Positions 1,401 to 63,778 are shown, counted from the stretch's first letter. The stretch is DNA of 64,000 nucleotides from Candidatus Marinacidobacterales bacterium (GCA_965237955.1 OZ250169.1:2912001-2976000); one strand, 5' to 3'. Notes: generated by a model from the sequence alone, not told the origin. Program-made: numbers and translations.

Positions 1401-1775
1401 CGTCCTGTGCCAAAACTCGGCCCTTTTGAAATAGGCCATAAATCAGCAGTTTAGTGTCTGTGTTTGCGACCGGGCCAAGGGCCGTGGGCTTTACAATCGT
1501 CTTGGGCGGGCGGGTCGTCACCATGCAGATGACCACCTCGTCGAGAGCGAATATCGAAGCGTGTTCCTGAAGCTGTTTCCACGCTACGCCGGTCGAGCCC
1601 GCCGAGGGGCTACCGTCGCCGGCGACCATCTACGCGGCACGGCAGTAGTAGTTTGAGAATGCCCCCAAGTCGCTCTCGCGACACGATGGGGCCAGCGTCA
1701 TTCGCGCTTGCCGGCAGAGGTGTGAGGAGACCTTGGTGGTTCCGTTCTCTGTGTGATAGTGCACTACGTATTCGT
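1401..1775 (-). mobile_element. Right end and degenerate 3' tip of the end-1 rve-integrase IS
   Basis: Matches the start of the full copy at 28180, with internal deletions; NYYCRAA C-terminus. Confidence 0.85.
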
Positions 1776-1935
1776 CATCGCCCCGTGGCGAGCCCGAGAT
1801 CTGGGGCGTGTCGGAGGCGATGTCGGCGATTTGGGTTCTCCGCACGCGCGGGGAAAACACCGTCCAGCAGCGGGATGCCACGCTCCCGGGCGGAGACCTG
1901 GATCCAAGCCCGGGCCGCACCTGGACCAGAACGTG

Positions 1936-2101
1936 CTAGTCCCCTGGAACAGAGGTTCGTGGCCTAAAGCTCGACGCCATTTTGTGGGCTGGCGAGGCGT
2001 GACGACGAAGTCATATTGGAATATTTCGAGGAGGAACAACGAAGCCAGCGCGCAAAAAGGGCCCGAGATTTAGGTTACGAACCTCTGTTCCAGGGGACTA
2101 G
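1936..2101. mobile_element. MITE with CTAGTCCCCTG ends inserted at CTAG (IS630-like)
   Basis: 25-bp perfect IR ctagtcccctggaacagaggttcgt; empty site gtgctaggc in the homologous region near 21378. Confidence 0.75.
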
Positions 2102-2593
2102 GCCGGCTACGCCGCGGTAACCTCAGCTTCGATTCTGAGCCCCTCGGGCGGCCTCTTTTCCGCTGCCCGCAAGGTCTTCGGTCAGAGCCCTGCGTACACA
2201 GGTTTCGGGAGAAGGCTGTTTTACGTGCTCTCGGGTTTCAACCTTGGTGCCCATTTCCTTCTATCCTCTTCCCCTACAGCGATTTAACGGCCTCCGTCAC
2301 GTGCTGGTCCCCGCACGCATCATCGACGGGTGATGAGAAGACGCTCAATGCCTAGATCGCGCCTGAGGAGAGGGCGAATAGCGGAATTCGAATTGGCCAA
2401 ACCTCGAATTCATCCAGCGGAGTTTTACGGAGGAAACGAAGATGACTCCGCAGACGGTCCAGTACAAGGAGCTATCCGAGTCTGGAAACCATGACAGGGA
2501 ATTTGGGCCAGTTTAAGTCTGATTGGTGGAGGCCAGTGTCGGAGAGCAGCTTGCTGCTAACCGAGGCCATTCACGAAGTGGGCGCTGGCAGGC

Positions 2594-4256
2594 TCACAGC
2601 GTTTTGACGAGCACTCGCTGTTTCTCCCAATCGTCGGGAAGCGGATGATGCAAGAGGTAGCTCGAGGTCAGCCCAACGGGCTGGCGGCCTTCGACAATGG
2701 CGCGGACGATGTCGGGAGCCAGGAAGGCATAACGGATTGCCTTGCGCACGCGGTCCGTTGGGATGGCGTTTTCGGTGGCAATCTCCTCATAGGTTTTGCC
2801 TGCTTTGATTCGGTCGAGCCAGGAGAGGGCGTTTCTGATATTGCGCAGGAGTGTGCGGTCGACGGATTTCGTGGGGTTGCCCAGAACGAGCTTGGTCTCG
2901 ACGCCGCGTCGACGCAAGCGGAACGGCGCGTGGATGCGGAGCGTATCCTCGCGAATGCGGTCGGGCTCCATAGACAGGCAAGCAGCGAACGCATTGCGGT
3001 CGAGGAGGATAGACACAGAGCCTGGGCTGATGTCGACCCGCCGGATAAGACGGAGCAGGGGGGCTGCCGAGGCACTATCATTGTTACTACCGGAACACAG
3101 CCCGTCTAAAAAGCGACGCACCGAGGCGAGCTCTTGCATCGTCGGAGTGTGGATCAACGAGGCCGAGAAGGTCGTGACATCCACATTGCTGTCGGATGAG
3201 ATGCACGACGGTCTGTTCCAGCATCGGGGCGGGCAGTCGCCAGCCGGAGAGGTCCTTTTGGCCACTGTGCTGGATGAGGCGCCGGGAGACGTAGTAGCGG
3301 AGCCGTTGCCCGTTTTTCTTTTTGGTGTGGCTCGGCGTCAGCCGGTCCCCGGTCTCGTCGAAGAGCTTGCCGGCCAGTGGGGAAGGGGCTGCACGGCCCT
3401 TCGTCGTGCGTCTCCTTGGTTTGGCAGCCCCTGCCTGCAGCTGCGTTTGGACCGCGTCCCAGAGCTCCGGAGCAATGATCGATGGATGCTGGCCCTCGTA
3501 GACACACCTCTGGTGCCGGATGCGGCCGGCGTAGAGAGGATTGGTCAGCAGGCAGTGGAGGTGTCCGCGACGGAACGGCAGCCCGCCCGTTCGGGTTCCA
3601 TCCGCGGTGAAGCGTTGCTTGGTACGCAGTCTCAGACGGTCCGCCTCGGCCTTCACCTGCCGGAGCGTTCCGTGCTTTCGGTACAGCGCATAGAGCGTCC
3701 GGACCGTTTCGGCCTCAGCCTCGTTGATGCGCAGCGTGCGCCCGTCCTTCTCATAGCCTAGCGGTACGCGGCCGCCCATCCATAGTCCCTTGCGCTTGGA
3801 GGCAGCGACCTTATCGCGGATCCGCTCGGCCGTGACCTCGCGTTCGAATTGTGCGAAGGACAGCAGCATATGCAGCGTCAGTCGTCCCATGCTGGTCGCG
3901 GTGTTGAAGGACTGAGTCACCGAGACGAAAACCGCGCCGGCCGCCTCGAGCCGCTCGACGAGCTTTGCAAAGTCGGAGAGGGAACGGGTCAGCCGGTCGA
4001 CCTTGTAGACCACAATCTGGTCGACGAGACCTGCGTCGATGTCGGCGAGCAAGCGCTGCAGGCCCGGGCGCTCCAGGGTTCCTCCCGAGAGCCCCGCGTC
4101 CTCGTAGACAGTTGGCAGCAGCACCCAGCCCTCCGCTTTCTGGCTCGCGACATACGCGGCGCAGGCTTCTCGCTGCGCATCGAGGGAGTTGAACTCCTGT
4201 TCGAGACCCTCTTCCGCACTCTTTCGCGTATAGATGGCACAGCGGATCTTCTTCAT
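2594..4256 (-). pseudogene. Large serine recombinase, copy 1, frameshifted near 3186
   Basis: AIYTRKS catalytic motif; near-identical to intact 46631..48292 with one extra base. Confidence 0.9.
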
Positions 4257-4257
4257 G

Positions 4258-4689
4258 TTAGGCCTTGCGCTTGGGCGTCAGACCGAAAAAGCGTGGTCCT
4301 GACCAGTGGGTGCCGGTGATTCGCTTTGCGATGGTAGTGAGGGACGGATAGGTTTTGCCATCGAACCGATAGCCGTTGTCGATTACCTCGACCTGGTAGG
4401 TCCGGCCATTCCACTCGCGGACGAGATGGGTGCCGGCAGAAACGGACCCTGCGGGAGCGTCGGAGCTTGGTGTCTCGTTCGCCATGGCAGCCAGAGCGCG
4501 CCGGGTTGCGGCCGAAAGCCCGCCATGGGTCCGGCACTGGCGTTCGTGCAAGAGAACGCGGCGCAGGAAAACACGCGAGAGCGAGCTTGGAGGAGCAGCC
4601 CCAAAGGTCTGCTCCCAGACCCGCCGTAAGCTGGCGAAGTCCAAACCGTCCAAAACGACGTTCCGGCCAACCCCTGTATCCTGCGGCAT
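4258..4689 (-). CDS. DUF2924 domain protein
   Basis: GTHLVREWNG...SLTTIAKRITGTHWSGPRFFGL; immediately upstream of the recombinase. Confidence 0.85.
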   Translation of the reverse strand: MPQDTGVGRNVVLDGLDFASLRRVWEQTFGAAPPSSLSRVFLRRVLLHERQCRTHGGLSAATRRALAAMANETPSSDAPAGSVSAGTHLVREWNGRTYQVEVIDNGYRFDGKTYPSLTTIAKRITGTHWSGPRFFGLTPKRKA

Positions 4690-4899
4690 CACCGAACGTT
4701 CGCTCTTGTGCTCGATAAAGTCCAGTCTAATGAGGGACTTCCGGGTGCGAAGTTCACTGGCCGTAGCTCGCCCCGCAGCCGATTTGAGCCAGCCGTGCGC
4801 ACCCCCGGTGGGCCTGTCGCTCGCCACCCGCAGCTCTGGGGTCGGAAGCCAGCCCTGCGGCGCGAAATACCCTCGATTTTGCGCGGATTCCAAGGGCGT

Positions 4900-4953
4900 C
4901 TAAGCTGCTGATTTGTGGTCTATTTCAAAAGAGCCGAGTTTTGGCACAGGACG
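4900..4953 (-). repeat. end-1 terminal repeat capping the DUF2924-recombinase module
   Basis: Same junction (cttagacgcccttggaatcc) recurs at 30609, 45935, 58533. Confidence 0.9.
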
Positions 4954-5927: not shown

Positions 5928-6065
5928 CGTGAGGTCAAAATACTCATGCTGCTTCCCGATGGTAGAAACGTAGCAACCCGCCAAGCCGTTCACGGGAGCG
6001 CACCATAGACACTAAGCTGCTGATTTATGGTCTATTTCAAAAGGGCCGAGTTTTGGCACAGGACG
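5928..6065. mobile_element. Hybrid MITE-C (end-3 CGTGAGGTCAAAATACTCATG plus end-1)
   Basis: Near-identical copies at 42755..42886 and 48690..48824. Confidence 0.8.
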
Positions 6066-8259: not shown

Positions 8260-8393
8260 CGTCCTGTGCCAAAACTCGGACAGCCACGACATCCCCAAGC
8301 GCCGGCCTACGGCCCTTGGGGATGTCGCAAACACAGACACTAAGTTGCTGATTTGTAGCCTATTTCAAAAGAGCCGAGTTTTGGCACAGGACG
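8260..8393. mobile_element. 134-bp MITE bounded by two end-1 repeats
   Basis: Inverted cgtcctgtgccaaaactcgg termini. Confidence 0.8.
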
Positions 8394-9456: not shown

Positions 9457-9672
9457 CGTCGTGTCCAAAAATACAAACGGACTCAAGACCGGCGCGCCGG
9501 GGCGTTTCGGATGAGAGGTGTCTAGGCTTGGTTGGCAATGGGAGCTAGACTGAGAGGTCTTTTCGGGAGCACCGATCACAGAGTCAGTGCCCCGTCGGCT
9601 GGTCTCCGCGAATTTCGAGAACGCCTCGAGGATTCGGGCTGTCGGGCTCTGTTCGTATTTTCGGACACGACG
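9457..9672. mobile_element. MITE with end-2 inverted repeats (CGTCGTGTCCRAAAATAC)
   Basis: 22-bp imperfect IR; abuts a truncated end-1 arm (9673..9772). Confidence 0.75.
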
Positions 9673-9772
9673 CGATTGTAGGGCCTTACGGCCCTTGGCA
9701 CGGTCGCAAACACAGACTCTAAGCTGTTGATTTATCGTTTATTTCAAAAGGGCCGAGTTTTGGCACAGGCCG

Positions 9773-10102: not shown

Positions 10103-10548
10103 ACTCTGGCGCTTGATTTTTCTTGCCGTTTTAAAGGAGTTCTGAGTCTAATGGGGTGTCGGCATCGGGGGCGTTTTCTTCTGCCCGCCGATACGCGTTC
10201 TTCCTTTTTTGCGGATCACAATCTTCTCCAACCATTCAAAAGGGCCGAGTTTCGGCACAGGACGCCATTCCAAAGGTTGGTGGTCTCCATCATTATTACA
10301 CTCGACGCGCTGCTTGAGTCCGATCTGCTCGGGACGGCTGCAGAACTTCGCACCAGCTTACACCTCTACCCCTGAGTAGAGCCGACGCCGGCTCTCAAAA
10401 CGTCCTACATGAAGATGACCAGAGCGTCCTGGTTACAGGCAGTTTGACAATCTCATGCAGCTCAAGTTTATGGAAGGGACAGCGGTCCGGGCCCTAGAGT
10501 CCAGTCCCGGACTCATAATGATGATGGACAACCCACCCTGGCCTCGAA

Positions 10549-11038: not shown

Positions 11039-11305
11039 GCCTTGGTGCACAACTCCGATAGAGGCCGAGAACTCGCTTGGCCCCGACTCCCATCATCCGA
11101 TCATCTCGCTATCAGGCATCCCGAGCGCCGTCACCGTGTTGAGAATCTTGCACCCGATCCTTGCCTCGACTCTCTGTGCCGCCAGCCCTCTCGCTCGCAT
11201 TGCTGAGCCCACGATAGCCTTGTAAGCGATGGAACGTTGTCTCGACTTTGCTCCGTTTGCTGTAGCCCGATTCTGTGTGCCACTTTCGTTTGCCGAGCCG
11301 AGCTT
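11039..11305 (-). mobile_element. IS5-family element B, right-end remnant
   Basis: Near-identical to 25585..25850; YKAIVG...RIGCKILN...LGMPDS. Confidence 0.8.
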
Positions 11306-11413
11306 CCCCGCTCTGGCCGAGGGTTTCGACTTAATCATCGGTAGAAGAAGGGTTCTATCCCCGCAGCGTTCGGGGGAAGAATCATATCCCCTGCCTCAGT
11401 TCTATGCCCTCCA

Positions 11414-12019
11414 TTACTTTGCGCGGTCTTCCGGGGATTGCGAATCGCCATCGTCGACCTCTGGCTCAGCAGCCTCTGGCTCAGCAACCTCTGGCTCAGC
11501 AACCTCTGGCTCGGCAGCCTCTGGCTCGGCAGCGTCCGGCTCAGCAGCGTCCGGCTCGGCAGCCTCTGGCTTAGCAGCCTCCGGCTCGGCAACCTCCGGC
11601 TCAGCAGCGTCCGGCTCGGCAGCCTCCGGCTCAGCAGCGTCCGGCTCGGCAGCGTCCGGCTCAGCAGCGTCCGGCTCAGCAGCGTCCGGCTCGGCAGCGT
11701 CCGGCTCGGCAGCCTCTGGCTCGGCAGCGTCCGGCTCGGCAGCCTCCGGCTCAGCAGCCTCCGGCTCAGCAGCGTCCGGCTCGGCAGCGTCCGGCTCAGC
11801 AGCGTCCGGCTCGGCAGCGTCCGGCTCGGCAGCGTCCGGCTCAGCAGCGTCCGGCTCAGCAGCGTCCGGCTTGGCAGCGTCCGGCTCAGCAGCCTCCGGC
11901 TCAGCAGCCTCCGGCTCAGCAAGAACAGCGGTGATTCGTGGAACTAGCTTATGCAGCAGCTTCTCCACCTGTGCCACCAACTCCGATGTCATCTCGGCAA
12001 TCGTTTTATTGTCTTTCAT
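11414..12019 (-). CDS. Acidic low-complexity protein with about 31 EP(D/E)(A/V)A pentapeptide repeats
   Basis: ATG after gagagg RBS; short helical N-terminus then repeats. Confidence 0.6.
   Translation of the reverse strand: MKDNKTIAEMTSELVAQVEKLLHKLVPRITAVLAEPEAAEPEAAEPDAAKPDAAEPDAAEPDAAEPDAAEPDAAEPDAAEPDAAEPEAAEPEAAEPDAAEPEAAEPDAAEPDAAEPDAAEPDAAEPDAAEPEAAEPDAAEPEVAEPEAAKPEAAEPDAAEPDAAEPEAAEPEVAEPEVAEPEAAEPEVDDGDSQSPEDRAK
11459..11920. repeat. 15-bp tandem repeat array, about 31 units
   Basis: Unit (g/c)tccggctc(a/g)gcagc. Confidence 0.95.
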
Positions 12020-12112
12020 TGAAACCTCTCAAATTCCTGGCATTTCTCAAGCCCGTGGACACGTTGCATCGGTTTCCGGACCCAAGAATCTATCACACGA
12101 CAGCTTGATTTC

Positions 12113-12225
12113 GGTGCTTCTGCCATCAAGTGTTGCTTCAGTTGGCCTGCCTGTGCCGGCGAACGCGTCGTGTCCAAAAATACAAACGAACTCAAGATCG
12201 GCACGCCGGGACGTTTCGGAATAGA
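12113..12225 (+). repeat. end-5 repeat (GGTGCTTCYGCCATCAAGTG) followed by end-2
   Basis: end-5 also at ~14216(-), 18780, 20306(-), 31268(-), 43930, 62159(-), 62175(-), 63899(-); end-2 starts at 12166. Confidence 0.75.
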
Positions 12226-12426: not shown

Positions 12427-13512
12427 GGCGTTGTTGCACGGCCCGGAGCAAATCGCTGACCTCCCTGTGCCGGTTGCAGAGTCACCCGGCGCAGTACGTA
12501 TCGGGCATCCCGAGCGCAGCCATCTTGTTGAGTATCTCGCACCCAATTCGGTGTTCAACTCGTTGCCTCGCCAACGTTCGAGCCCGCATCTCCGGCCCGA
12601 TGATCGCCTTGTAACGATAGACCGCGTTCTCCACCATGCTTCGCTTGGTGTAGCCTGAGAGCTTGTACCATTCACGTCGGCCGTGTCTTTCGATTGCACG
12701 AATATGGCGATCGCGCTCCTGCAATGGCGGTGTTCGAATTCTGACTGAGCGTCGCGTTTCGTTGCGGCGGAATCACCACGCGCGTCCTTCGTCCAGGACT
12801 GTGCGCTTCGATGGCTTCGTAGACCGCTTCCTTGTCGTATGCACTGTCCGCCGCCACCGACACTAGAGGTGCTTGAATCTGTGTTAGCAAAGCGGGGACT
12901 CGGGTTGCGTCGCGAGCTCGTGACGCCGTCAGTTCGGACGCAACAATGTTCCCTGTCTCGCGATCAACGGCGATGTGCAACTTGCGCCATGCGCGCTGCT
13001 TTGGCGGTTTGCGAGCGTTTCCAACATGAATCCTCAAGCCCGTGCTATCGATCACCAGGTGGATGGGTTGAGTGCTCGCGGCTTTCGGAATCCGCAGCTT
13101 CTTGCGGAGCAACCTCGAGCGCCGACACAACGTCGAGTAGTCCGGGATCTCGATACCGAGCCCGAGAAGCGAGGCGATCGAGTGCAAGAAGCCTTCGGTT
13201 TGTCGGTAGGCGAGCTTGTACACCATCCGGACAACCAGGCCCGTTTCAATCGCCATGTCTGAATAGACCCGTTGACCGCCAAGCTTACCGGTCTTGTCGG
13301 CCTTCCAGTTCGCGATTGCCTCCTCGTCAAACCAGACTGTCAAATCGCCCCGGCGGCGCAGCCCTTCGTTGTATTCCGCCCAGTTGCGAACGTGGTACTT
13401 CTTCTGCTTCGCGTGCTTGTACTGGCAGCGCTTGGGATACTTCATGCTCGAACATACCTCGGCCACCACCATAGGCGGATTTCGCTCTCAGCCAGAGCGG
13501 TGCAACAACGCC
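12427..13512 (-). mobile_element. IS5-family (IS903-like) element A, copy 1, frameshifted
   Basis: IR GGCGTTGTTGCAC; IDSTG, WRKLH, ADSAYD, RSMVE; extra A near 12725; no TSD. Confidence 0.92.
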
Positions 13513-13656
13513 GATGAAAGTCGTCGAGCATCGAACACTGCACCCGTATCCCGAACAGCGACTGCGCGTCATGACCTGAGGTAGGAGCCCAGTGCGTTAG
13601 CAGCGCTCGCTGGGATCTGTGCGGGGGGCCGCCCGTGAGGGCGGTCCCTACCGCGA
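13513..13656 (+). ncRNA. Group II intron 3' remnant (RT C-terminus plus domains V-VI)
   Basis: LHPYPEQRLRVMT-stop then GAGCCCAGTGCG...CGCTCGCTGGGATCTGTGCGGGGGG...CCCTACCGCGA. Confidence 0.8.
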
Positions 13657-15060: not shown

Positions 15061-16623
15061 TGTTTCGGTTCAGCTGGAACATGACAGTCCTGAAGTTAAA
15101 ATACGCACAGGAAAAAGGAGCTGTCATGAGCAAAGGTCGTCGTCGTCACACTGCGGAGCAAAAGGCAGAGCTGTTGCGCCAGCACGTTGCCGAGAAAAAG
15201 CCGGTCTCGGAGGTATGCAACGAGGCAGAAATCCAGCCGAGCCTGTTCTACACATGGCAAAGGGAGCTATTGGCTGGAGCCCATACGGTGTTTTCGTTCC
15301 GTCGTGCGCCGAGCCGTGAGAAGGAGCTAGAGGAGAAGCTCTCCCGTCTCGAGGCGAAGGTGGCCCGTAAGGATCAGATCATCGCTGAGGTGACCGAAGA
15401 GTACGTGACACTCAAAAAAACTTGGGGAAGCCTGAGTGGTGCCTGGATTCCCCATGACCGTCGTGACGAGGTTGTCGACTTCGTGAACACAATCGCCACC
15501 AAGACCCAGCTTCCGGTCCAGCAGATCGTTCAGTGGTGCGGGATCGCTCGGGGCAAGTTCTACGACTGGCGCAAGCGGTACGGGAAGGTGAATGAGCACA
15601 ACGGCCTGGTGCCGCGGGATCACTGGATCGAAGAATGGGAGCGCCAGTCCGTGATCGACTACTTCGACTGCCACCCACTGGACGGGTATCGCCGACTCAC
15701 GTTCATGATGCTGGACGAAGACGTGGTGGCAGTTAGCCCCTCGACGACGTACCGGGTGTTGTCGAAGGCGGGTCGTCTGGACCGTTGGAACCCGAAGCCG
15801 TCGAAGAAGGGAACGGGCTTCGTTCAGCCGCTGCGAGCGCACCAGCACTGGCACACGGATATCTCGTACTTGAACCTGGGTGGGACGTTCTACTACCTCT
15901 GCTCGTTTCTGGATGGTGCGAGCCGCGCGGTGGTTCACTGGGAGATTCGTGAGTCGATGACGGAAGCGGATGTGGAGTGCATCTTGGAGCGAGCAAAGGA
16001 GCGGTACCCCGATGCGCGGCCTCGAATCATCTCGGACAACGGTCCGCAGTACATCGCGAAGGACTTCAAGGCATTCATCCGCATCTCAGGGATGACGCAC
16101 GTGAGGACCGCGCCGTACTACCCGCAATCGAACGGGAAGATCGAGCGTTGGCACAAGACGATAAAATCGGACGCCCTGCGTCCTGCCAGCCCCAACGAGC
16201 CTCGAAGAGGCTCGCCGCTTGATGGAACGATTCGTCGAATATTACAACGGGGTTCGCCTGCACAGCGCGATCGGCTACATTGCGCCGCTGGACTTCATGG
16301 ATGGCAAGGCCACCCAGATCTGGTCGGAGCGAGACCGCAAACTCGAGCAGGCTCGGAAGCTGCGGCGTGAGCGCCGTGCGAACAAGGTGCCCGCATGAAC
16401 ACTCTGATCCCAGGAGCCCCACTCCGTTCCCTCTCGCCCACAAGCATTGAGTACCAGAGAGCGCAGGGGGCGTCAAGGGCGGCGAAGCCGGCGCGCGCAG
16501 CGCGCTTTACCCTTGACGCCCCCGAGCACTCTGGTACGATCCCTGGGGCGATAGGGGACATCCTGCCGCCGGGCGTTGCGTTAACGTCCAACCTCGCTGT
16601 CATCTTCACGCTGAACCAATACA
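15061..16623 (+). mobile_element. IS3/IS481-like element, transposase 15126..~16400 with late frameshift
   Basis: IR TGTTTCGGTTCAGC/TGTATTGGTTCAGC; WHTDI, SDNGPQY, SNGKIERWH; no TSD. Confidence 0.9.
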
Positions 16624-17657: not shown

Positions 17658-17768
17658 GGGTGGAGTTTCGAGTACCTGGGCTATTGCCGATACGGCTCAC
17701 AAGTGGCGGTCCGGATTGGTCCGATGGAAAGCTCGAAGACAGGTTGAGCATGAGCGTGTGGGGCAGCC

Positions 17769-18563: not shown

Positions 18564-18881
18564 CGTCCTGTGCCAAAACTCGGCCCTCTTGAAATAGCCG
18601 ATAAATCAGCAGCTTAGCGTCTGTGTTTTGCGACGGTGCCAAGGGCTGTGGGCTTTACAATCGTCTGGCTCGAGGGTGTTATCTTCGGATCCATCATGAC
18701 GTACCATGTGCAAATCCTACTGTTGGTCAGGCAGCCGTTGTTCGATCGGGCAGCCCTTGCTGCTCACACAGACCTCATGGGTGCTTCCGCCATTAAGTGT
18801 TGGTAACATGACGCTAAGACTTTACGGTGCATTAAATTACAGCCATGGTCTTTCAAAAGGGCCGAGTTTTGGCACAGGACG
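18564..18881. mobile_element. MITE-E, 318 bp (end-1, integrase first codons, internal end-5, end-1)
   Basis: Near-identical copy at 43713..44030; partial inverted copy at 31168..31330. Confidence 0.88.
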
Positions 18882-19474: not shown

Positions 19475-19479
19475 ACCAA

Positions 19480-20307: not shown

Positions 20308-20321
20308 CACGACCTGGCACC

Positions 20322-45551: not shown

Positions 45552-45569
45552 TCCTTCGGAGGACTTCAC

Positions 45570-46629: not shown

Positions 46630-46630
46630 C

Positions 46631-48292: not shown

Positions 48293-48689
48293 GCCTGCCA
48301 GCGCCCACTTCGTGAATGGCCTCGGTTAGCAGCAAGCTGCTCTCCGACACTGGCCTCCACCAATCAGCCTCAACCTGGCCCAAATTCCCTGTCATGGTTT
48401 CCAGACTCGGATAGCTCCTTGTACTGGACCGTCTGCGGAGTCATCTTCGTTTCCTCCGTAAAACTCCGCTGGATGAATTCGAGGTTTGGCCAATTCGAAT
48501 TTCGCTATTCGCCTTCTCCTCAGGCGCGATCTACGCGTAGAGCGTCTTCTCTTTGTCTGCGCGATTAAGCGCAAAAACGTCCCGATAAGCCCCAAAATCG
48601 CCCCAAATTGCACACTAAGGGCCTGTTTTGCTCTGTTTCTGATCGTTTCCAGCCAAGAATCGGAAGATCCACTCGAGCCTCCCGACTGC

Positions 48690-49081
48690 CCTGTGCCAAA
48701 ACTCGACCCATTTGAAATAGGCCATAAATCAGCAGCTTAGTGTCTATGGTGCGCTCCCGTGAACGGCTTGGCGGGTTGCTACGTTTCTACCATAGGGAAG
48801 CCGCATGAGTATTTTGACCTTACGGGCACTCCCACAGGAAACGGGGAGAAACAGATAGGCCGCGCCTACGGAGCACCGTGCCAGCCCTCGACCCTACCGC
48901 GATGGAGCCTGACCAGAAGCCTGCTGGGCCGGACAGTTCCCCCGCTGATGCCCAGGGTGCCGACTATAATAGTGATGAAGGAGCCTCATCGGTGGGCCTT
49001 TTATCGGCCCGGTCGCAAACACAGACACTAAGCTGCTGATTTATGGTCTATTTCGAAAGGGTCGAGTTTTGGCACAGGACG
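48690..49081. mobile_element. Composite non-autonomous unit: MITE-C (48690..48824) plus spacer plus end-1
   Basis: Inward-facing end-1 repeats share a variant (ctcgaccc). Confidence 0.7.
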
Positions 49082-51870: not shown

Positions 51871-53299
51871 CGTCCTGTGCCAAAACTCGGCCCTTTTGAA
51901 ATAGGCCATAAATCAGCAACTTAGTGTCTGTGTTTGCGACCGGGCCAAGGGCCGTGGGCTTTACAATCGTCTTGGGCGGGCGGGTCGTCACCATGCAGAT
52001 GACCACCTAGTCGAGAGCGAATATCGAAGCGTGTTCCTGAAGCGGTTTCCACGCTACGCCGGTCGAGCCCGCCGAGGGGCTACCGTCGCCGGCGACCATC
52101 TACGCGGCACGGCAGTAGTAGTTGAGAATGCCCCCAAGTCGCTCTCGCGACACGATGGGGCCAGCGTCATTTGCGCTTGCCGGCAGAGGTGTGAGGAGCT
52201 CGTTGCCGAGACCTTGGTGGTTCCGTTCTGTGTGATAGTGCACTACGTATTCGGTTACCGCTGTCCGCAGGTGTCGCTCACTGAGAGGTACGAAGCGGTC
52301 GAGACACTCTCGACGTATGGAGAGAACGAATCTTTCCGCATATGCGTTCAGATTCGGACTATTCGCGGGAAGGCGCAGGGGCTTCACGCCTGAATCTCTC
52401 AACAGCCCACGTACCGCCTCGGTGAATAGCGGGTCCCGGTCGTGGATGAGGTATCGCTTGCCAAGGAGGAAACCATCCCACATGTCAGTGAGGTTTCTTG
52501 CCACCTGCTTCATCCACTCCCCGTTGGGGTCCGACGTTATCCCACCGATGCACACGCAGCGAGTGGCGATATCGATGACAAACAGGACATGGTAGCGGAC
52601 GAGCCCGAACGGGTTCACAAACCTCGACGGTGAACAGGTCTGTCGCAGCGATGGCGCCCCAATGAGCCTTGATGAAGGTGCTCCACGACATGCTCTTGCC
52701 CCGCTCCGGGGCAGGCGCGATACCGTGCTCGGCGAGGATCCTCTTGATAGTGTTGCGTCCGAGTTCATGTCCTAGGTTCTTGAGTGCGCCTCGCAGGCGC
52801 GTATATCCCCACGTCGGGTTCTCCCGCGCCACGCGCACAATGAGCTCACGGATGTCCTTCGCCGTCGGAGGTCGGCCTGGGCTCCGGTTCTTGCTGCCAT
52901 CGTACTTGGCTGCGATGAGGCAGCGGTACCAACGCAGAAGCGTAGCGGGTGTGGCAACGGACGCAATCTGGGCCAGCGCCTCGCGGCCCAAAGCCTGGGC
53001 CTTGACGGCGAGCCTGCGCCGCTCGTCGTCCGAGAGCCTGAGACGCTTGCCCCGAAGCCCGGCTCGGAGCACACGGTTCTCCTCTTGCTGGTAGTCGATC
53101 ACATCCTGCTGCTGGCGGTTGACCCAGCCAGCTAGAACGAGCAGTAGGAATTGCACGTGGTACGTCATCATGGACCTGAAGATAACACCCTCGGGCCAGA
53201 CGATTGTAAAGCCTGCGGCCCTTGGTCCGGTCGCAAACACAGACACTAAGCTGCTGATTTATGGTCTATTTCAAAAGGGCCGAGTTTTGGCACAGGACG
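51871..53299 (-). mobile_element. Full-length end-1 IS, copy 3, integrase frameshifted near 52620
   Basis: One extra base relative to copies 1 and 2. Confidence 0.92.
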
Positions 53300-53440
53300 G
53301 GAAAGAGTAACCCTTGGCACGACTGCTTGGTTGGACTGGTATATAATTTCCGTTTTTGATGGAACAAACTTCATGGGGGAGAAGGAAACACAAGCAGCAC
53401 CAAGCTCGTTTCACCGCACCGGCAAAGCGACCGAGTCCAC

Positions 53441-55969
53441 ATGAACGAAGCGACCGCTCGGATCAAGATCAACAAACTGCTCGAAGCCGCCGGCTGGCGC
53501 TTCTTCGGCGATGGAGACTCGCCTGCCAATATTTGCCTTGAACCCAATGTCACGATCAGAACGTCCGATCTCGACGCCCTGGGCAACGACTTCGAGAAAA
53601 CATCCAAAGGCTACATCGACTTCTTGCTTTTGGACACTAAGGGATTTCCCTACATCGTCCTGGAAGCCAAATCGGAGGACAAGAACCCGCTCGTCGGCAA
53701 GGAGCAGGCCCGCAAATACGCCCGCTCCCAGAATTGCCGCTTCGTCATCCTGTCGAACGGCAACCTGCATTACTTCTGGGATCTAGAACGCGGCAACCCC
53801 TACGTCATCACCTCCTTCCCGACGCCGGAATCTGTATCCGGCTACCGGAAGGTCGCGCCCAACCCGCAGCGCCTGATCGGGGAACAGGTCGGCGAAGACT
53901 TCATCGTTCTCACCCAACGGCCGAATTATGCCTCTGAAGCTGCGTGGAAGAATGAAGCTGAGCGCCCCGGCTTCATTCAGGCCAACAAATTGCGCTTTCT
54001 GCGTGTCTATCAGCTCAGAGCGATCCATGCGTTGCAGCGGGCGGTACAGGACGGAGGCGATCGCTTCTTGTTCGAGATGGCGACAGGCACTGGCAAGACG
54101 CTCACCGCTGCCGCCGTCATCAAGCTGTTCCTCCGCTCGGGCAATGCCAGCCGAGTGCTCTTCCTGGTCGACCGGCTGGAATTGGAAGATCAGGCGCATA
54201 AGGTCTTCGCCACATTGCTTTCAGCGGACTTCCAGACGGTTGTCTATAAAGAGAACCGTGATGACTGGCATCGCGCCGAGATCGTCGTCACCACTGTTCA
54301 ATCCCTACTGTTCAACAACAAGTATCAGCGGCTCTTCTCGCCCACGGACTTCGATCTTGTAATTTCCGACGAGGCACATCGCTCGATCGGCGGTAACGCC
54401 CGCGCAGTGTTCGACTTCTTCGTGGGCTACAAGCTCGGGTTGACCGCGACGCCCCGTGACTATTTGAAGGGTACCAGCAAGACCGGCACTGCGGTGCATG
54501 ACCCACGTGAAACCGAACGGCGCCTCCTTCTCGACACCTATCGCACCTTTGGCTGCGAGAGCGGGCAACCCACCTTCCGCTACTCGCTACTCGATGGTGT
54601 GAAAGACGGATTCCTGCTCAACCCGACCGTGGTCGACGCTCGTACCGATGTGACCACCCAACTCCTATCCGAAGAGGGGTTTGTCGTCTCGTTCATCGAC
54701 GAGACGGGTGAAGACCTGGAGGAAGCCTACAAGCAACGCGAGTTCGAAAAGAGCTTTTACTCTGAGGCCACCAACCAGCTTTTCTGCAAAACCTTCCTTG
54801 AGAACGCGCTGCGTGACCCGATCAGCGGCGAGATCGGGAAGTCCATCGTCTTTGCTGTCAGCCAGAACCACGCAGCCAAGCTCGCGCAGATCTTCAACCA
54901 GATCGCTGACCGGATGTTTCCTGGCAAGTACCGGTCAGACTTCGGCGTGCAGGTAACCTCGCAGATCGCAGATGCGCAGAAGTTCACCATCAACTTCGCC
55001 AACAACAACCTGCTGGGCTCGGCCAACTTCCGTCCCGGCTACCGGACCAGCAAGGCTCGGGTCTGCGTCACGGCGGGCATGATGACCACCGGCTACAACT
55101 GCACCGATATTCTGAATATTGGCCTGTTCCGTCCCATCTTCTCGCCCACCGATTTCGTCCAGATCAAGGGACGCGGCACCCGTAGGCACGACTTCCGGGA
55201 TGACATTCTTGATGACAGCCTCAAGGACAGCGTCGCCGAGGCGCAGAAGACTGCATTCAAGCTCTTCGATTTCTTCGGCAACTGCGAGTATTTTGAGACC
55301 GAGTTCAACTACGACGAAGAGCTGAAGCTGACTCGGCCTCAAACGAGTAGCGGCGGGGCCGACATCGAACCGGTTCAGTTCGCTGGCTCTTACGAACACC
55401 CCGGGGCCGACATCATTGTCTCTGTACATGAAGAGACCATCGATTACGAAGGGATGAAGATTGACCGGATGCTCTTCGAGAAGTTCGGGGACACCGTGCG
55501 CCAAGACGAGACGATCGCCGATGCAGTGATGGCGGGCCAGTGGGATCGCGTAATCGATTACGTCAACCGAGAGGTCTTTGACAAGCCCGAAGAATACTAC
55601 ACCCTCAAGAAGCTGCGCCAAGCTGCCGCCGTGGACCGCCGCCTCACCTTGCGCGAAATTCTGGAGAAGGTCTTCGGCCTCATTCCCGATTTCAAATCTA
55701 AGGATGAGTTATTGGAAGAGGAGTTTGCGAAGTTCGTAGCCGATTGCAAGCCCGACGAGGCCAACGCCATCCAGGCCATCAAGACCTACTTCAAAGCCTA
55801 TGCCACCAGCAACCAAGTACGCGACATCATCGATGGCAAACGATTCGCCGAGCTCGCTACCAACCCGTCCTTTTCCACCGGCGACTTCAGCGCTGTGCCG
55901 GACAAGTACCGTAACCTCATTCCGGAATACGTCAAGGACTACGTTTCCTTGAACCAGTTCGCCCCGTAG
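53441..55969 (+). CDS. hsdR: Type I restriction endonuclease R subunit (EcoEI/EcoAI-like)
   Basis: ID...VLEAK nuclease motif, MATGTGKT, DEAH, LTATP, QIKGRGTR. Confidence 0.9.
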   Translation: MNEATARIKINKLLEAAGWRFFGDGDSPANICLEPNVTIRTSDLDALGNDFEKTSKGYIDFLLLDTKGFPYIVLEAKSEDKNPLVGKEQARKYARSQNCRFVILSNGNLHYFWDLERGNPYVITSFPTPESVSGYRKVAPNPQRLIGEQVGEDFIVLTQRPNYASEAAWKNEAERPGFIQANKLRFLRVYQLRAIHALQRAVQDGGDRFLFEMATGTGKTLTAAAVIKLFLRSGNASRVLFLVDRLELEDQAHKVFATLLSADFQTVVYKENRDDWHRAEIVVTTVQSLLFNNKYQRLFSPTDFDLVISDEAHRSIGGNARAVFDFFVGYKLGLTATPRDYLKGTSKTGTAVHDPRETERRLLLDTYRTFGCESGQPTFRYSLLDGVKDGFLLNPTVVDARTDVTTQLLSEEGFVVSFIDETGEDLEEAYKQREFEKSFYSEATNQLFCKTFLENALRDPISGEIGKSIVFAVSQNHAAKLAQIFNQIADRMFPGKYRSDFGVQVTSQIADAQKFTINFANNNLLGSANFRPGYRTSKARVCVTAGMMTTGYNCTDILNIGLFRPIFSPTDFVQIKGRGTRRHDFRDDILDDSLKDSVAEAQKTAFKLFDFFGNCEYFETEFNYDEELKLTRPQTSSGGADIEPVQFAGSYEHPGADIIVSVHEETIDYEGMKIDRMLFEKFGDTVRQDETIADAVMAGQWDRVIDYVNREVFDKPEEYYTLKKLRQAAAVDRRLTLREILEKVFGLIPDFKSKDELLEEEFAKFVADCKPDEANAIQAIKTYFKAYATSNQVRDIIDGKRFAELATNPSFSTGDFSAVPDKYRNLIPEYVKDYVSLNQFAP

Positions 55970-55978
55970 AAACCTACC

Positions 55979-58447
55979 ATGCTGGATTCCAACACCAAGC
56001 GCCGCATCGACACCGCCCGAGACATCCTGGTCGGCAAGGTTCCGGACCCTAAGAGCCAGGTCGAGCAGATCACCATCGCGCTGATCTACAAGTTCATGGA
56101 CGACATGGACGCCGAGAGCGAGGAGTTCGGCGGGAAGCGCAGCTTCTTCGCCGACGAGTTCGCCCGCTATGGATGGGCCAAGCTGATGCGCGCCGGCCTC
56201 GGCGGCCATGAGACCTTGAACCTCTACGCCGAGGCCATCACCAAGATGCCTGAGAATCCCGGCATTCCACCTTTATTTCGCGATATCTTCAACAACGCCT
56301 ACCTGCCATATCGCGATCCGGAGACCCTTCGCGCCTTTCTAAAAATCATCGACGCGTTCACGTACGACCACTCCGAGCGCCTAGGTGACGCCTTCGAGTA
56401 TCTGCTCTCGGTCCTCGGCTCGCAGGGGGACGCCGGGCAGTTCCGCACCCCGCGCCATATCATTGACTTCATCGTCGCCATCATCGAGCCGAAGAAGGGC
56501 GAAACGGTGCTGGACCCCGCGTGTGGTACCGCCGGATTTCTGATCTCATCCTACAAGCACATCCTTGCCGCCAACACTGACCCGCAAGGCGTCAGCACGC
56601 TGACGCCGGATGACAAGGAGCGGCTAGCGGCGAACTTCAAAGGCTACGACATCTCGCCCGACATGGTGCGCCTGTCTTTGGTGAACATGTACCTGCACGG
56701 CTTTGCTGCCCCGCCTATCTTCGAGTACGACACGCTGACCAGCGAGGAGCGGTGGAACGAGTATGCGGACGTAATTCTGGCGAAGAACCCTCCGTTCATG
56801 TCTCCGAAGGGTGGTATACGGCCGCACAACCGGTTCTCAGTGCAATCCAAGCGGAGTGAGGTGCTGTTCGTGGACTACATGGCCGAGCACCTGACGCCCT
56901 CTGGCCGCGCCGGCATCATCGTGCCCGAGGGAATCATCTTCCAGAGCCAGAACGCCTACAAACAGCTTCGTAAGATGCTGGTAGAGGAATACTTGGTTGC
57001 TGTCGTTTCTTTGCCGGCTGGTGTGTTCAATCCCTATTCGGGCGTCAAGACGTCGATTCTCATCCTCGACAAGTCGCTTGCGAAGAAGACGGATCGTATC
57101 GCCTTCTTGAAGATCGAAAACGACGGTTTCGGTCTGGGCGCTCAGCGGCGCCCCATTGACAAAAATGACATACCGCAGATCCAGACCGAGATTGGCAAGT
57201 ACCTGCAATGGCTGCAAGCGGGGATACCACTAGACGGCTTCCGGCCTGCGCTCGGCCTTTTCGTACCGAAGGAAAAGATCGGCGCGAACGAGGAGTACAA
57301 CCTCAGTGGAGAGCGATATCGGGAAGAAGTAGTGCAATCAAAGCACTTTCCTTGGAGAACGGTGGAATCGCTCGTCGAGACAATCACTCCTCCATTCAAG
57401 ATCCAGAAAGCTGCTTTCGGAAGCAGCGGACGATTTCCCATCATCGATCAATCTCAAGATGCTATCGCAGGCTGGACGGATGATGAGTCCACATTGGTTC
57501 ACCCCACCAAACCGTTGGTTATCTTCGGCGATCACACGTGCGCACTTAAACTGATAGATGCGCCATTCGCACAGGGAGCAGACGGCATTAAAATCTTGCA
57601 AACCGTAGACGCGCTCGACCCACTTTTCCTCTTCCGCGTTCTCCGTGCCAGACCCCTCGAGAGTAGTGGTTATCAGAGGCATTACTCAAAGCTCAGAGAA
57701 CATCAAATCCCTCTGCCGCCGTTGGAGGTACAGAAGGAGATCGTCGCCGAGATCGAGGGTTACCAGAAGGTCATCGACGGTGCCCGCGCCGTCGTCGACC
57801 ATTATAGGCCGCACATTGCCGTAGACCCTGAATGGCCGTTGGTCCCCATTAAAGAGGTGGCGGCGGTTGAGAGTGGCTTCGGCTTCCCGATAGATCGTCA
57901 GGGCCAGAATGATGAGGGGATTCCGTTTCTGAAGGTCAGCGACATGAACCTCCCAGGGAATGAAGTGCGCATCGTGTCATGGAACAATTCTGTCTCACGC
58001 GAAGTCCTGCTCGAGTTGAAGGCAAAGGCGTTTCCCACAGGAACCGTAATCTTTCCGAAGATTGGTGCAGCTATCGCGACGAACAAGAAGCGCATCCTGA
58101 CAAGGGAGTCGACCTACGACAACAACGTAATGGGCATCGTCTCTGACCGCGCCCGTCTCGTGCCTGAATACTTACACACCTATCTTCTTGGCTTCAATCT
58201 TTCACGATGGGCAAGTGACGCGCAGCCACCGTCAATGCGAAAGACGGCGGTGGAAGCCCATGATATTCCCCTCCCGCTCCTCATCATACAGCAAGCCATC
58301 GTAGCTGAGTTCGAAGCCGAGCAGGCGTTGGTCAACGCCAACCGCGAGCTGATTGCCCGCTTCGAGAAGAAGATCAGCGCTGCCATCGGGCGAGTATGGG
58401 GCGAAGCTGAACCCGTCCTGTGCCAAAACTCGGCCCTTTTGAAATAG
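55979..58447 (+). CDS. hsdM: Type I methyltransferase fused to specificity domains (HsdM-HsdS); stop codon supplied by end-1
   Basis: GQFRTP, DPACGTAGF, NPPF; two TRDs with IPLPPLEVQ/IPLPLLIIQ. Confidence 0.88.
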   Translation: MLDSNTKRRIDTARDILVGKVPDPKSQVEQITIALIYKFMDDMDAESEEFGGKRSFFADEFARYGWAKLMRAGLGGHETLNLYAEAITKMPENPGIPPLFRDIFNNAYLPYRDPETLRAFLKIIDAFTYDHSERLGDAFEYLLSVLGSQGDAGQFRTPRHIIDFIVAIIEPKKGETVLDPACGTAGFLISSYKHILAANTDPQGVSTLTPDDKERLAANFKGYDISPDMVRLSLVNMYLHGFAAPPIFEYDTLTSEERWNEYADVILAKNPPFMSPKGGIRPHNRFSVQSKRSEVLFVDYMAEHLTPSGRAGIIVPEGIIFQSQNAYKQLRKMLVEEYLVAVVSLPAGVFNPYSGVKTSILILDKSLAKKTDRIAFLKIENDGFGLGAQRRPIDKNDIPQIQTEIGKYLQWLQAGIPLDGFRPALGLFVPKEKIGANEEYNLSGERYREEVVQSKHFPWRTVESLVETITPPFKIQKAAFGSSGRFPIIDQSQDAIAGWTDDESTLVHPTKPLVIFGDHTCALKLIDAPFAQGADGIKILQTVDALDPLFLFRVLRARPLESSGYQRHYSKLREHQIPLPPLEVQKEIVAEIEGYQKVIDGARAVVDHYRPHIAVDPEWPLVPIKEVAAVESGFGFPIDRQGQNDEGIPFLKVSDMNLPGNEVRIVSWNNSVSREVLLELKAKAFPTGTVIFPKIGAAIATNKKRILTRESTYDNNVMGIVSDRARLVPEYLHTYLLGFNLSRWASDAQPPSMRKTAVEAHDIPLPLLIIQQAIVAEFEAEQALVNANRELIARFEKKISAAIGRVWGEAEPVLCQNSALLK

Positions 58448-58525
58448 ACCATAAATCAGCAGCTTAGTGTCTGTGTTTGCGACCGGGCCAAGGGCCGTAG
58501 GCTTTACAATCGTCTGGCCCGAGGG
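58414..58525 (+). mobile_element. Left end of the end-1 IS
   Basis: Matches 30383..30495. Confidence 0.85.
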
Positions 58526-58532
58526 CGGAGGG

Positions 58533-59094
58533 CGTCCTGTGCCAAAACTCGGCCCTTTTGAAATAGACCACAAATCAGCAGCTTAGACGCCCTTGGAATC
58601 CGCGCAGAATCGAGGGTATTTCGCGCCGCAGGGCTGGCTTCCGACCCCAGAGCAGCGGGTGGCGAGCGACAGGCCCACCGGGGGTGCGCACGGCTGGCTC
58701 AAATCGGCTGCGGGGCGAGCTACGGGCAGTGAACTTCGCACTCGGAAGTCCCTCATTAGACTGGACTTTATCGAGCACAAGAGCGAACGTTCGGGGATGC
58801 CGCAGGATACAGGGGTTGGCCGGAACGTCGGTTTGGACGGTTTGGACTTCGCCAGCTTACGGCGGGTCTGGGAGCAGACCTTTGGGGCTGCTCCTCCAAG
58901 CTCGCTCTCGCGTGTTTTCCTGCGCCGCGTTCTTGCGTACGAACGCCAGTGCCGGACCCTTGGCTGGCATTCGGCCACAACCCGGCGCGCTCTGGCTGCC
59001 ATGGCGAACGGGACGCCAGGCAACGGCGCCGCCGCTCCCGCAGGGTCCGTTTCTGCCGGCACCCATCTCGTCCGTGAGTGGAATGGCCGGACCT
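58533..59094 (+). mobile_element. end-1-capped DUF2924 module, truncated
   Basis: Cut at EWNGRT by end-1 at 59095. Confidence 0.85.
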
Positions 59095-59254
59095 CGTCCT
59101 GTGCCAAAACTCGGCCCTTTTGAAATAGGCCATAAATCAGCAACTTAGTGTCTGTGTTTGCGACCGGGCCAAGGGCCGTGGGCTTTACAATCGTCTTGGG
59201 CGGGCGGGTCGTCACCATGCAGATGACCACCTAGTCGAGAGCGAATATCGAAGC
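59095..59254. mobile_element. Isolated right end of the end-1 IS
   Basis: Matches 51871..52030. Confidence 0.85.
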
Positions 59255-60258: not shown

Positions 60259-60510
60259 CGTCCTGTGCCAAAACTCAGCCCTTTTGAAATAGACCATTAA
60301 TCAGCAGCTTAGTGTCTGTTGTGCCTTCTATTTATTCATCCGCGCGTCCCGAACTTGATTGATCTTCGGTCTACCAGCACCATGCCGGCATGATTTCGTC
60401 GTTGGTTCCCGCTCTCATCTCTGCCTTCAAGGTTCGTCGCGAGCTAGCTCTCGAGAATGTCACTCTTCGGGAGCAGCTCGCCGTCCTCCACCATTCCGTG
60501 AAACGGCCGC
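60259..60510 (+). mobile_element. end-1 plus end-4 plus degenerate integrase N-terminus
   Basis: MISSLVPALISAFKVRRELALENV. Confidence 0.7.
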
Positions 60511-61020: not shown

Positions 61021-61027
61021 TCTAAGT

Positions 61028-62059: not shown

Positions 62060-62187
62060 TCGGACTCCTCCTTTTCGATGCGTATTCGACTGACTTTGGC
62101 ACATCGATGCCGTCTATGTCAGCGGAGGAGTCCATTCCATCACTTGATGGCGGAAGCACTTGATGGCGGAAGCACCGAATAGAGTCC

Positions 62188-63671
62188 ATGCCGACGGCAA
62201 GAACCAGCGAGAGCCACCCACTGCGCATCACGGCGATGACCCTGGGCGACGGCCGTGGCCGGATCGGCTTCTCGCAGTGCCCCGGTAGGATCGATCACTA
62301 CGCAATATCCGGGCCCTGGAAGCGGGATCTCGACACCGACCTCGACGCGATTCAGCGCTGGGGAGCGACTGCGGTGGTCAGCCTGATCACCCACGAAGAG
62401 ATCCCCGATCTGAAGGTGCACGATCTCCCGAGGGCGGTTCGAGACCGGCACATGGAGTGGTGGCATGCCCCGATTCCCGACGGAGAGGCACCGGAACAGG
62501 ACTTCGAGCACGCCTGGAAGGCCACCGGCGAGTCCATCCGGAACCGGCTGCGGCTCGGCTTCGACGTGCTGCTCCACTGCCGGGGTGGTCTGGGACGCGC
62601 CGGGACCATCACAGCCCGCCTGCTGGTGGAGTTGGGCGTGCAACCGGACGATGCGATCCGCCGCGTGCGCGACGCCCGCGAATGGACCATCGAGAACGGC
62701 TCCCAGCTGGCTCACGTGAGGCAGTGTTCGGCACAAGCACCATCGGTTCCATCCCGGAGACCGCGGACGACATCCACGACCGGGCGCTCGGGGCCTTCCT
62801 CGGTCTGGCGGTGGGCGACGCGGTCGGCACGACGCTCGAATTCTGCTCCCGCGATACGCAGCCGCGTCTAGAAGACATGGTCGGTGGCGGCCCGTTCGAT
62901 CTGCCGGCCGGCGCTTGGACCGACGACACGGCCATGGCGCTGGCCCTTGCCGACAGCCTGGCGGAATCCAAGACGCTCGACTGCCGGGACCTGATGGACC
63001 GTTTCGTGAAGTGGTGGCGAGACGGAGACTACTCGTGGAGCGGAGACTGCTTCGACATCGGAAACACGACCTGCCAAGCGCTCACCCGGTACCTACGGAC
63101 GGGTGACCCGGTCGCGGGTTCGACCGATCCCTTGAGCGCAGGCAACGGCTCGCTGATGCGGCTCGCCCCCGTTGCGCTCCGGTTCAGGCACGACCGGCCG
63201 CGCCTGATCGCAGCAGCCGCCGACCAGTCCCGGACGACCCACGGAGCCGAGGAAGCAGTGGACGCCTGCCGGGCGTTCGGCGAGCTCCTAGCGGACGCCA
63301 TCGCCGGGTCACCGTTCTCGGACGTTCTGGCTCCGAGACGGTTCACGGGAGCGGCGGCAATCACTCAGGTCATAGCCGGCAGCTGGCGAGGACGGACACG
63401 GGATACGATCCGCTCCAGCGGGTACGTCGTTCACACGCTCGAAGCCGCCATCTGGTCAGTCGCCCGCACCGGAGACTTCCGCAGCGCGGTGCTGCTCGCG
63501 GCCAACCTGGCCGACGACGCCGATACGGTAGCAGCAGTGACGGGGCAGCTCGCCGGCGCCCTCTACGGCCTGAACGCCATCCCCGACCACTGGCGGGAAC
63601 GCGTTGCCTGGAAGGATCGACTCCTGGCAGCGGCGCGGCGGTTGCTGTCGGAACCCCTTGCCGACCGGTAG
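62188..63671 (+). pseudogene. CDKN3-like dual-specificity phosphatase fused to ADP-ribosylglycohydrolase; one frameshift near 62740
   Basis: HCRGGLGRAG; GDAVG, WTDDT, GNGSLMR, DADT. Confidence 0.85.
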
Positions 63672-63689
63672 AAGTTGGGTGGGTAGCCG

Positions 63690-63778
63690 AAGCACGGCTC
63701 TTGACCCGGTCGCAAACACAGACACTAAGCTGCTGATATTATGGTCTGTTTCAAAAGGCCGAGTTTTGGCACAGGACG
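63690..63778 (-). repeat. Degenerate end-1 arm
   Basis: gcaaacacagacactaagctgctg...ggcacaggacg. Confidence 0.85.

Follow-up and report, generated by a model that had tools for sequence, protein, structure and literature searches.

In a 64,000-nt stretch of the chromosome of a Candidatus Marinacidobacterales bacterium (GCA_965237955.1 OZ250169.1:2912001-2976000; hereafter the window), one terminus of an insertion sequence (IS), termed end-1, is joined again and again to unrelated DNA, and every junction retains the same half of a preferred target site. In textbook DDE transposition, both ends are transferred in concert, with a fixed stagger between them. For end-1 we propose instead, with a probability of roughly 0.6, that each end is joined alone by single-strand transfer to the tip-like host site S-G-A-Y-C-C | N-G-T, independently of its partner and with no fixed stagger between the two, and that ends are in addition exchanged with one another. 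Underlying this proposal are the position of the tip, a flank derived from the target, the one-sided rule, missing partner halves and one long duplication with its empty site, all of which were observed directly.

End-1 is the terminus of a 1,428-bp element with inverted repeats of ~104 bp and 5'-CGTCC tips. An earlier note, made from the window alone, listed 36 copies, all of which were found, 18 on the plus and 18 on the minus strand; most are tipped ends as the note had it, whereas the one at 48690 begins 3 nt into the end and that at 42886 lacks CGTCC. Only six copies belong to full-length elements, again as noted, and these are supplied by the three elements located on the minus strand at 28180-29608 (intact open reading frame (ORF) at 28410-29555), 36172-37599 (without target duplication) and 51871-53299 (frameshifted ORF). 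A scan of the whole 8.1-Mb genome yielded 550 matches at ≤3 mismatches, 498 of which were kept as ends after a downstream check, and a backwards-read control gave 0 matches versus 486 real ones. Near full-length copies number 25 and intact ORFs 19. The density is far from uniform: 493 of the 498 ends lie in 15 blocks, delimited from the ends themselves, which cover 2,228 of 8,136 kb (27% of the chromosome), and the other 5.9 Mb hold only five. The genome-wide count thus bears out clustering, and the note's single local array gives way to 15 blocks. Element copies also show a 75:28 strand bias, with equal sign in blocks on both sides of a weak GC-skew minimum.

A further 203 copies or more, with a similar flank consensus, belong to sister families whose tips include CGTCGTGTCC and CGTGAGGTC. 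Of 497 end-1 copies examined for a partner at ≤3.2 kb, 120 closed on a second end-1 copy and 29 on the end of a sister family, while 73 were cut by another tip and 275 were open; the impression of single ends is partly made up of mini-elements and of hybrids with sister families. All four orientations of neighbouring ends are common in the genome. The outward-facing arrangement around segments which the note had described holds for some of them, but only 129 of 470 neighbouring pairs face outward and many apparently lone ends are in fact paired.

The same rule governs the junctions throughout. Across the 498 ends the flank consensus is A at position -4 (0.67), C at -2 (0.89) and C at -1 (0.77), followed by the invariant CGTCC. 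The two bases before the tip agree with the uninterrupted allele in 205 of 249 cases (139 of 155 in the high-identity cases), and beyond the junction the uninterrupted allele continues with C/A, G/C and T/C, so that the lost half resembles the element's own tip. Intact alleles exclude the internal TGT as the tip, as they do a tip extended to the CC in front of it, and relatives have GGT, TAT or AGT in place of TGT. The consensus recurs in 268 ends from other assemblies and in other Acidobacteriota. Among 62 environmental loci examined, 31 had an inverted repeat, 23 had CGT at both tips, and the consensus was repeated there; none of these 23 relatives carried a repeat of ≥3 bp, although short-read contigs could hide long repeats. 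No sequence rule was found at internal truncation points (192 breakpoints). Half-sites of median quality occur about once per 93 bp per strand, and the density of the target motif is equal inside and outside the blocks; clustering by depletion of the motif outside the blocks was dropped for this reason.

When two ends insert in concert, they use the two strands of a single site; a half-site is then expected on the opposite strand at some fixed offset. At a score of ≥4 bits, with a matrix trained on the same flanks, the retained half was recognised in 46% of 155 alleles, versus 1% at random and 0-4% for the opposite strand, whichever stagger between -8 and +20 was taken. A search for the partner halves beside other ends gave, for 228 junctions, 21 matches scattered over 10 offsets. 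In 160 of the 498 ends the flank lies in multi-copy DNA, where both halves would be recognisable, and no pair at near-zero offset was seen. Short target duplications were absent from the full-length copies, and 41 full-length copies in other assemblies share ≤3 bases. The missing gene halves, which the note had not found in the window, were likewise not found beside partner ends in any part of the genome. Since one side alone of each landing site was found to be retained, an independent attack of the two ends on DNA is likely; in place of a clean insertion of the ordinary type, it would lead to copying, deletion and reshuffling of segments. The note's suggestion of an rve-type DDE enzyme acting on single ends is consistent with the one-sided rule.

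The two-base motif in front of the tip could also be the 2-bp core of an attachment site, made up of tip and flank, at which a large serine recombinase swaps the flanks. Such an enzyme is at hand: 81 of the 498 ends are fused to a serine recombinase unit, and there are 16 long close copies of the recombinase gene. In the window, a 54-bp end-1 is fused to one such unit at 45935-48689 (plus strand; ORF 46631-48292), with other copies at 2335-4953 and 22046-23877. The dinucleotide, however, is not inherited along lineages of ends (pair concordance 0.57 versus 0.63 when shuffled), on which ground core-matching by the recombinase was rejected. Moreover, reciprocal joints of old flank and target right half gave no peak at the junction register among the matches listed, multi-copy artefacts aside, the site is asymmetric about the dinucleotide, and distant relatives of the DDE gene follow the same rule. 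We therefore regard the recombinase as a very improbable source of the junctions. Its unit extends over more than 3.6 kb and has a tail site that is cut by end-1 in at least five copies; the far end of the unit was sought and not located.

A sequence rule outside the repeat is also hard to obtain by error. Chimeric long-read assembly of mixed strains through the repeated element deserves mention since the sequence is one metagenome-type contig with 6.2% estimated contamination and no read or contig was obtained across the window junctions. Errors of this kind would impose no such rule, and mis-paired flanks cannot remove half of every site; besides, 13 of 338 low-copy junctions recur at the identical position in loci of other genomes, and other assemblies show a similar density and the same consensus. 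Chimeric assembly, the refutation which the note itself had considered, is accordingly very unlikely. In 40 related genomes, nine (from two families) hold 29-498 copies of end-1, one more holds two copies and in 30 none was detected; these tallies include the unpublished G027, on which no claim depends. Element copies of ~98% identity are present in eight assemblies titled Candidatus Marinacidobacterales. The two sets may overlap, and kin are not independent. The end-1 mosaic is a real feature, both genome-wide and lineage-wide. Sequencing runs labelled sponge metagenome accounted for small shares, and we make no claim as to habitat. In G025, nearly all of the 30 ends lie in one block of ~140 kb (C1:6218808 to the contig end plus 1-24063), a simple case for array growth.

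Further insight came from long repeats around composite units. A sister-family unit at genome position 2,545,797-2,548,639, in which two elements enclose 1,347 bp of cargo, is flanked by an 88-bp duplication in single-copy DNA. The repeat covers the 3'-terminal part of a SurA-like core gene, and both junctions follow the rule. The corresponding empty site is contained in a 6,185-nt contig of run X13, which skips 2,931 bp, i.e. the 2,843 bp of the unit plus 88 bp, and in G006 the SurA-like tail is present once and followed by the same downstream gene. The locus is found with zero differences in run X10, which may be the source sample and so is not independent. The second case is a repeat of 869 bp (99.8% identical) around a 14.8-kb end-1 composite inside an IS, with full-length copies at both outer ends; in a far-pair control, 0 of 20,000 reached 99%. 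In both cases the outer elements are directly repeated, which is no more than compatible with a replicative cointegrate. Deletion-type empty sites within the genome did not exceed background (99 low-copy candidates among 2,443 pairs; far-pair background 931 among 30,000), and of three G013 sites tested against G009 two yielded no usable empty site.

These repeats could alternatively have arisen by host recombination or by insertion at breaks, with ends added to breaks or incoming fragments and a tip-bounded piece integrating by homology with the end of a core gene. The 88-bp repeat is indeed a gene end, its copies differ at 3 of 88 bases, and both ideas are in print, as far as the parts of the sources drawn on go (PMC2853133; PMC11708052). 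The median identity of block-to-core duplicates, 95.7%, is what DNA from related strains would be expected to show; many copies may derive from such strains. Breaks, on the other hand, would not yield a sharp sequence rule at the exact junction, tip-bounded pieces would still be needed first and the 869-bp case inside an IS would stay unexplained. For these reasons we consider this route improbable.

Tip-bounded segments point to copying and exchange. The amidase segment of the window (44031-45934, plus strand) is a near tip-to-tip copy (96%) of genome 4,226,171-4,228,063, and a 1,527-bp segment at 2.994 Mb likewise copies a locus outside the blocks from nearly tip to tip. Of the 206 outward pairs, with a median of 1.9 kb, no more than 19 have a colinear source free of tips, and a tip was overlooked in at least one of those. 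Boundaries of low-copy duplications lie ≤25 bp from an outward tip in 17 of 199 cases versus 0.5% at random. Other family tips or repeats occur near some source loci outside the blocks, which leaves it uncertain in part which copy came first. Different element interiors were found in 10 of 18 shared low-copy junction groups. For the 906-bp segment between two tips at 17658-18563, loci L014 and L193 of other genomes hold the exact source, which is colinear, uninterrupted and 99% identical. The CBS-domain segment between two tips (29609-30382, plus strand) is repeated with the same right junction at genome 2,844,943-2,845,714, the segment 6066-8259, which starts inside an IS110 gene, also occurs at 8,080,617-8,082,809, and the DUF169 plus Brx segment (37600-39437, plus strand) copies, with 97-99% identity, a locus at genome 3.896 Mb in which sister-family tips are present. 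G025 contained no source alleles for two of its segments; one 3-kb piece is 99% identical in G033, starting at the same junction. Segmental duplications of 6-13 kb (~98%) were also noticed between 640132-690873 and 251923-277874 of the genome, the largest of them ending at the end-1 tip 651011.

The type I restriction-modification (R-M) segment (53300-58413, plus strand; HsdR and an HsdM-S fusion, between two tips) is 97.5% identical over 4,470 bp to the genome of a bacterium from another family (G023), where end-1 copies flank it at other positions. The note took HsdS to be cut at the repeat. The break in HsdM-S falls at codon 812, compared with 808 aa in a homologue, so the gene is essentially whole. 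The specificity region of the fused HsdM-S (55979-58447) differs from that of the G023 system, suggesting a domain swap. Intact source alleles, for which the note had proposed a search, exist outside the window, one of them being that of the S9 peptidase (99%, a 716-codon open frame near 104-106 kb of the genome); none close was found in this genome for GH2, the methyltransferase, M23 or the R-M segment.

Several results weigh against independent joining of ends, and the first of them concern its main rival, ordinary expansion. According to this explanation, elements insert with both ends at a fixed short stagger, almost all of the original junctions in dispensable regions are afterwards overwritten by very frequent inversions, one-ended adjacent deletions and recombination among copies, and the duplicated genes came about otherwise and were merely trimmed. 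IS5-family copies are also concentrated in the same blocks (56 of 59) and lack target duplications in 45 of 50 full copies, their partner flanks not being found, so neither clustering nor missing short duplications is specific to end-1; the blocks are general sinks of mobile elements with heavy scrambling. IS3-type copies with 3-4-bp duplications account for 8 of 14 outside the blocks and 3 of 11 inside, and adjacent deletions are described as a cause of missing duplications in the part of PMC11708052 drawn on here. A synteny break, which we also count in favour of independent joining, fits as well: a two-ended G013 unit joins blocks that lie on different G009 contigs, 2.4 and 1.3 kb are missing at the lost halves, and the other side of the break carries further IS. 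The tip-segment-tip geometry is, moreover, also expected from serial deletions. Beyond this rival, the sole long duplication with an empty site belongs to a sister subfamily, and its 3 differences in 88 bases make homologous integration of a captured piece possible too. Repeats of ≥14 bp are rare (4 in 3,111 near pairs versus ~1.6 expected), and no complete long duplication was found in 353 further pairs from relatives (229 + 63 + 61) or in the G025 island. For 172 of the 206 outward pairs the DNA examined contained no colinear source, and neither tip nor repeat was present at 152 of the 218 duplication boundaries. Outward-facing segment boundaries in the genome and in loci L001-L077 comprised 17 L-R, 11 R-R and no L-L combinations, with the ORF-upstream end over-represented; the capture route predicts one end of each type per segment, and the 11 R-R cases speak weakly against it. 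Orientation of neighbours in relatives was 11 direct versus 6 inverted (p = 0.33). Neither transposition intermediates nor activity were observed.

Ordinary expansion nevertheless explains the clustering and not the failure of every stagger. No fixed stagger fits any detectable share of the junctions, the multi-copy flanks yielded no near-zero-offset pair, relatives from unrelated metagenomes and in other Acidobacteriota likewise lack a short duplication and follow the same one-sided consensus, and the 88-bp duplication lies in single-copy core DNA. We therefore judge ordinary expansion to be unlikely, though it is the rival that has to be taken most seriously.

Independent joining of ends would work as follows. 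A single-end transfer would give rise to an adjacent deletion or a new long-range joint, and two transfers on opposite strands would, we infer, duplicate or delete the DNA between them, whether 88 bp, 869 bp or kilobases. If the donor were still attached, recombination across the duplicated segment would restore the source, and a tip-segment-tip copy would remain next to the donor element; attached donors and such resolution would account for clean sources and for arrays growing in place. Incoming DNA of relatives could be captured likewise. Mosaic blocks would then build up as near-identical ends are exchanged, further single ends attack and dispensable regions tolerate the changes. The note's view that host segments are captured or shuffled agrees with the tip-bounded units which were copied or imported, although capture itself is deduced, not seen. 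A more far-reaching version, which strikes us as doubtful, would have a very large, unclassified DDE family lack any concerted integration step, its ends always picking tip-like sites independently, and act as a genome-wide capture engine, copying resident or incoming segments between two tips into arrays at donor sites, leaving the source unscarred and creating integron-like gene pools that move between bacterial families.

The note's single-end idea is largely right, in contrast to its framing as one array and as integron-like. The strings of unrelated genes, exchanged and shared between species, do recall integrons. However, no IntI tyrosine recombinase was detected in 60 window frames by Pfam scan, the array is not polar, ends stand in both orientations without a single entry site, genes are cut internally and the boundaries are inverted IS ends. 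The end-1 system is IS-like, not integron-like.

To place the enzyme, we analyzed the transposase encoded at 36401-37546 (minus strand; 381 aa from GTG, likely start Met26), which has helix-turn-helix (HTH) domains and an rve_3 DDE core. The catalytic triad D203/D269/E304 is invariant among 30 homologues. With this RNase H-like core, inverted repeats around a single gene and many near-identical copies, the element has the make-up of a DDE insertion sequence; a fixed short target duplication is what it lacks. Only IS481, IS3 and IS630 models match, every one below cut-off (NCBIfam IS481 101.8 versus 224, IS3 82.9 versus 160); the IS6/IS26 model did not match and the IS1634 model not at E ≤ 0.001. 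The predicted structure (mean pLDDT 73) resembles IstA, TnsB and HIV integrase only generically (TM ≤0.33), and a PDB sequence search gave one weak match. As 7,970 of 8,000 scored protein clusters match at E ≤ 1e-40, the family is, judged by sequence similarity, very large, with at least 7,970 clusters. Among distant homologues, Bradyrhizobium L204 has CGT tips, and no CGT tip was called for Streptomyces L203. Three database proteins (P0003, P0043 and P0045) are fusions of the transposase to host domains (PF00486, PF01979), probably by read-through of junctions. The literature, as judged by titles and abstract openings, gave no account of CGT-tipped elements with such a junction rule; ISfinder and most subscription journals lay outside this search, and an entry may exist.

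The HTH plus rve core fold, the weak matches to both models, the size of 1.2-1.45 kb and the terminal inverted repeats are shared with IS481 and IS3, whose features for membership we took from parts of PMC10045372 and PMC3469429. By the model scores the element falls outside both families. Moreover, the tips are CGT...ACG and not TG...CA, the internal TGT is not conserved in the family, and there is one ORF rather than OrfA and OrfB with a programmed frameshift. IS481 target duplications measure 6 or ~15 bp in the pertinent part of PMC10045372, and none was found here. A duplication-IS481-duplication without short repeat is described as one laboratory case, readily lost, in the part of PMC11708052 concerned, whereas for end-1 the missing fixed duplication looks like the rule. 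The 88- and 869-bp repeats, absent from nearly all other pairs, may be a counterpart of the long variable duplications (8-514 bp) of IS1549/IS1634, for which the portion of the 2008 paper drawn on states that no mechanistic model had yet been proposed (PMC2266710). Those elements have a transposase of another group; for end-1, most copies have no repeat, the target rule is strictly one-sided and mosaics are built from hundreds of ends.

Exchange of interiors at shared junctions and a tip-like target also recall IS26. IS26 copy-in produces a fixed 8-bp duplication, and IS26 arrays are directly oriented, whereas end-1 occurs in all orientations and mostly as mini-elements and fragments, besides the missing IS6/IS26 match. 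Gene clusters interspersed with IS26, and single-ended cleavage with transfer of one end to the equivalent position of a like end, are described in the part of PMC7885326 used here. [quoted passage not shown] In those systems an element's end attacks next to its own opposite end, and both ends take part in integration; our material contained no junction with two tips abutting, the closest outward pairs being 24-27 bp apart. Finally, insertion with long target duplication, reported for restriction-modification genes, leaves the cargo flanked by long repeats derived from the end of a host gene, the site being empty in a relative, according to the relevant part of PMC2853133. Those units have no mobile element at the border, whereas in our case each of the two junctions is formed by a transposon tip at a preferred half-site.

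The remaining window features are as follows. A truncated copy at 1401-1774 cuts, with its tip, the S9 peptidase gene, of which 871-1400 remains. Other truncated copies lie at 16623-17657 (1,035 bp, tip 17657) and 19479-20060 (582 bp, tip 20060). Between these, a GH2 C-terminal fragment (18882-19478, plus strand), with no close allele in the genome, is cut at tip 18881, and the following tip-bounded segment (20061-20843, minus strand) holds a methyltransferase cut N-terminally. The M23-like fragment (42887-43712, minus strand) was noted as cut by the repeat on both sides; this is true of the right side, at tip 43713, and the left boundary is a tip-less copy. A run X9 contig matches to 43712 and then diverges. 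Mini-elements with end-1 on both sides occupy 18564-18881 (318 bp, second copy at 43713-44030) and 20844-21173 (330 bp), and another of 134 bp has ends of 20 and 89 bp (8260-8393). A hybrid mini-element joins sister-family tip 5928 to end-1 tip 6065 (5928-6065), with similar ones at 42755-42886 and 48690-48824; the latter belongs to a cluster at 48690-49081 with tip-damaged end 48690, sister tip 48824 and end-1 tip 49081. One sister-family mini-element (9457-9672) is nested against an end-1 copy with tip 9772 (9457-9772), and another lies at 40206-40334. Three nested ends each are found on the plus strand at 30383-31198 (30383, 30609, 31168) and 58414-59254 (58414, 58533, 59095), the second and third of the latter being joined to DNA inside the preceding unit. 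The stretch 39438-40182 consists of a 147-bp truncated end (39438) and a unit of the 330-bp type whose end is at 40182. Short ends are present at 60259-60319 (61 bp, plus strand) and, on the minus strand, at 63693-63778 (86 bp, tip 63778), 10235-10264 (30 bp, tip 10264) and 42644-42697 (54 bp, C>T change at the tip). IS5-family elements lie at 12427-13521, 23878-24963 and 40772-41859.

Apart from these, the window contains a pair of genes for a dual-specificity phosphatase and an ADP-ribosylglycohydrolase (62188-63671), present at about five other genome sites, and a pentapeptide-repeat gene with a 15-bp tandem array (11229-12224). Rfam gave no match in the window. Elsewhere in the genome (2445330-2448245), a related element sits in an island of ~2.9 kb bounded by a 51-bp repeat that resembles a tRNA 3' end.

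If the ends are indeed joined independently, a family of at least 7,970 clusters that keeps half targets would offer a natural model for uncoupled integration. The long duplications of IS1549/IS1634 and the duplication-IS-duplication events would then become testable with a small enzyme and an end of ~20 bp. The findings also carry a warning, in that IS annotation which relies on target duplications misses boundaries of this kind. For the bacteria themselves, end-1 would provide a route to copy core genes and to import defence genes without an integron.

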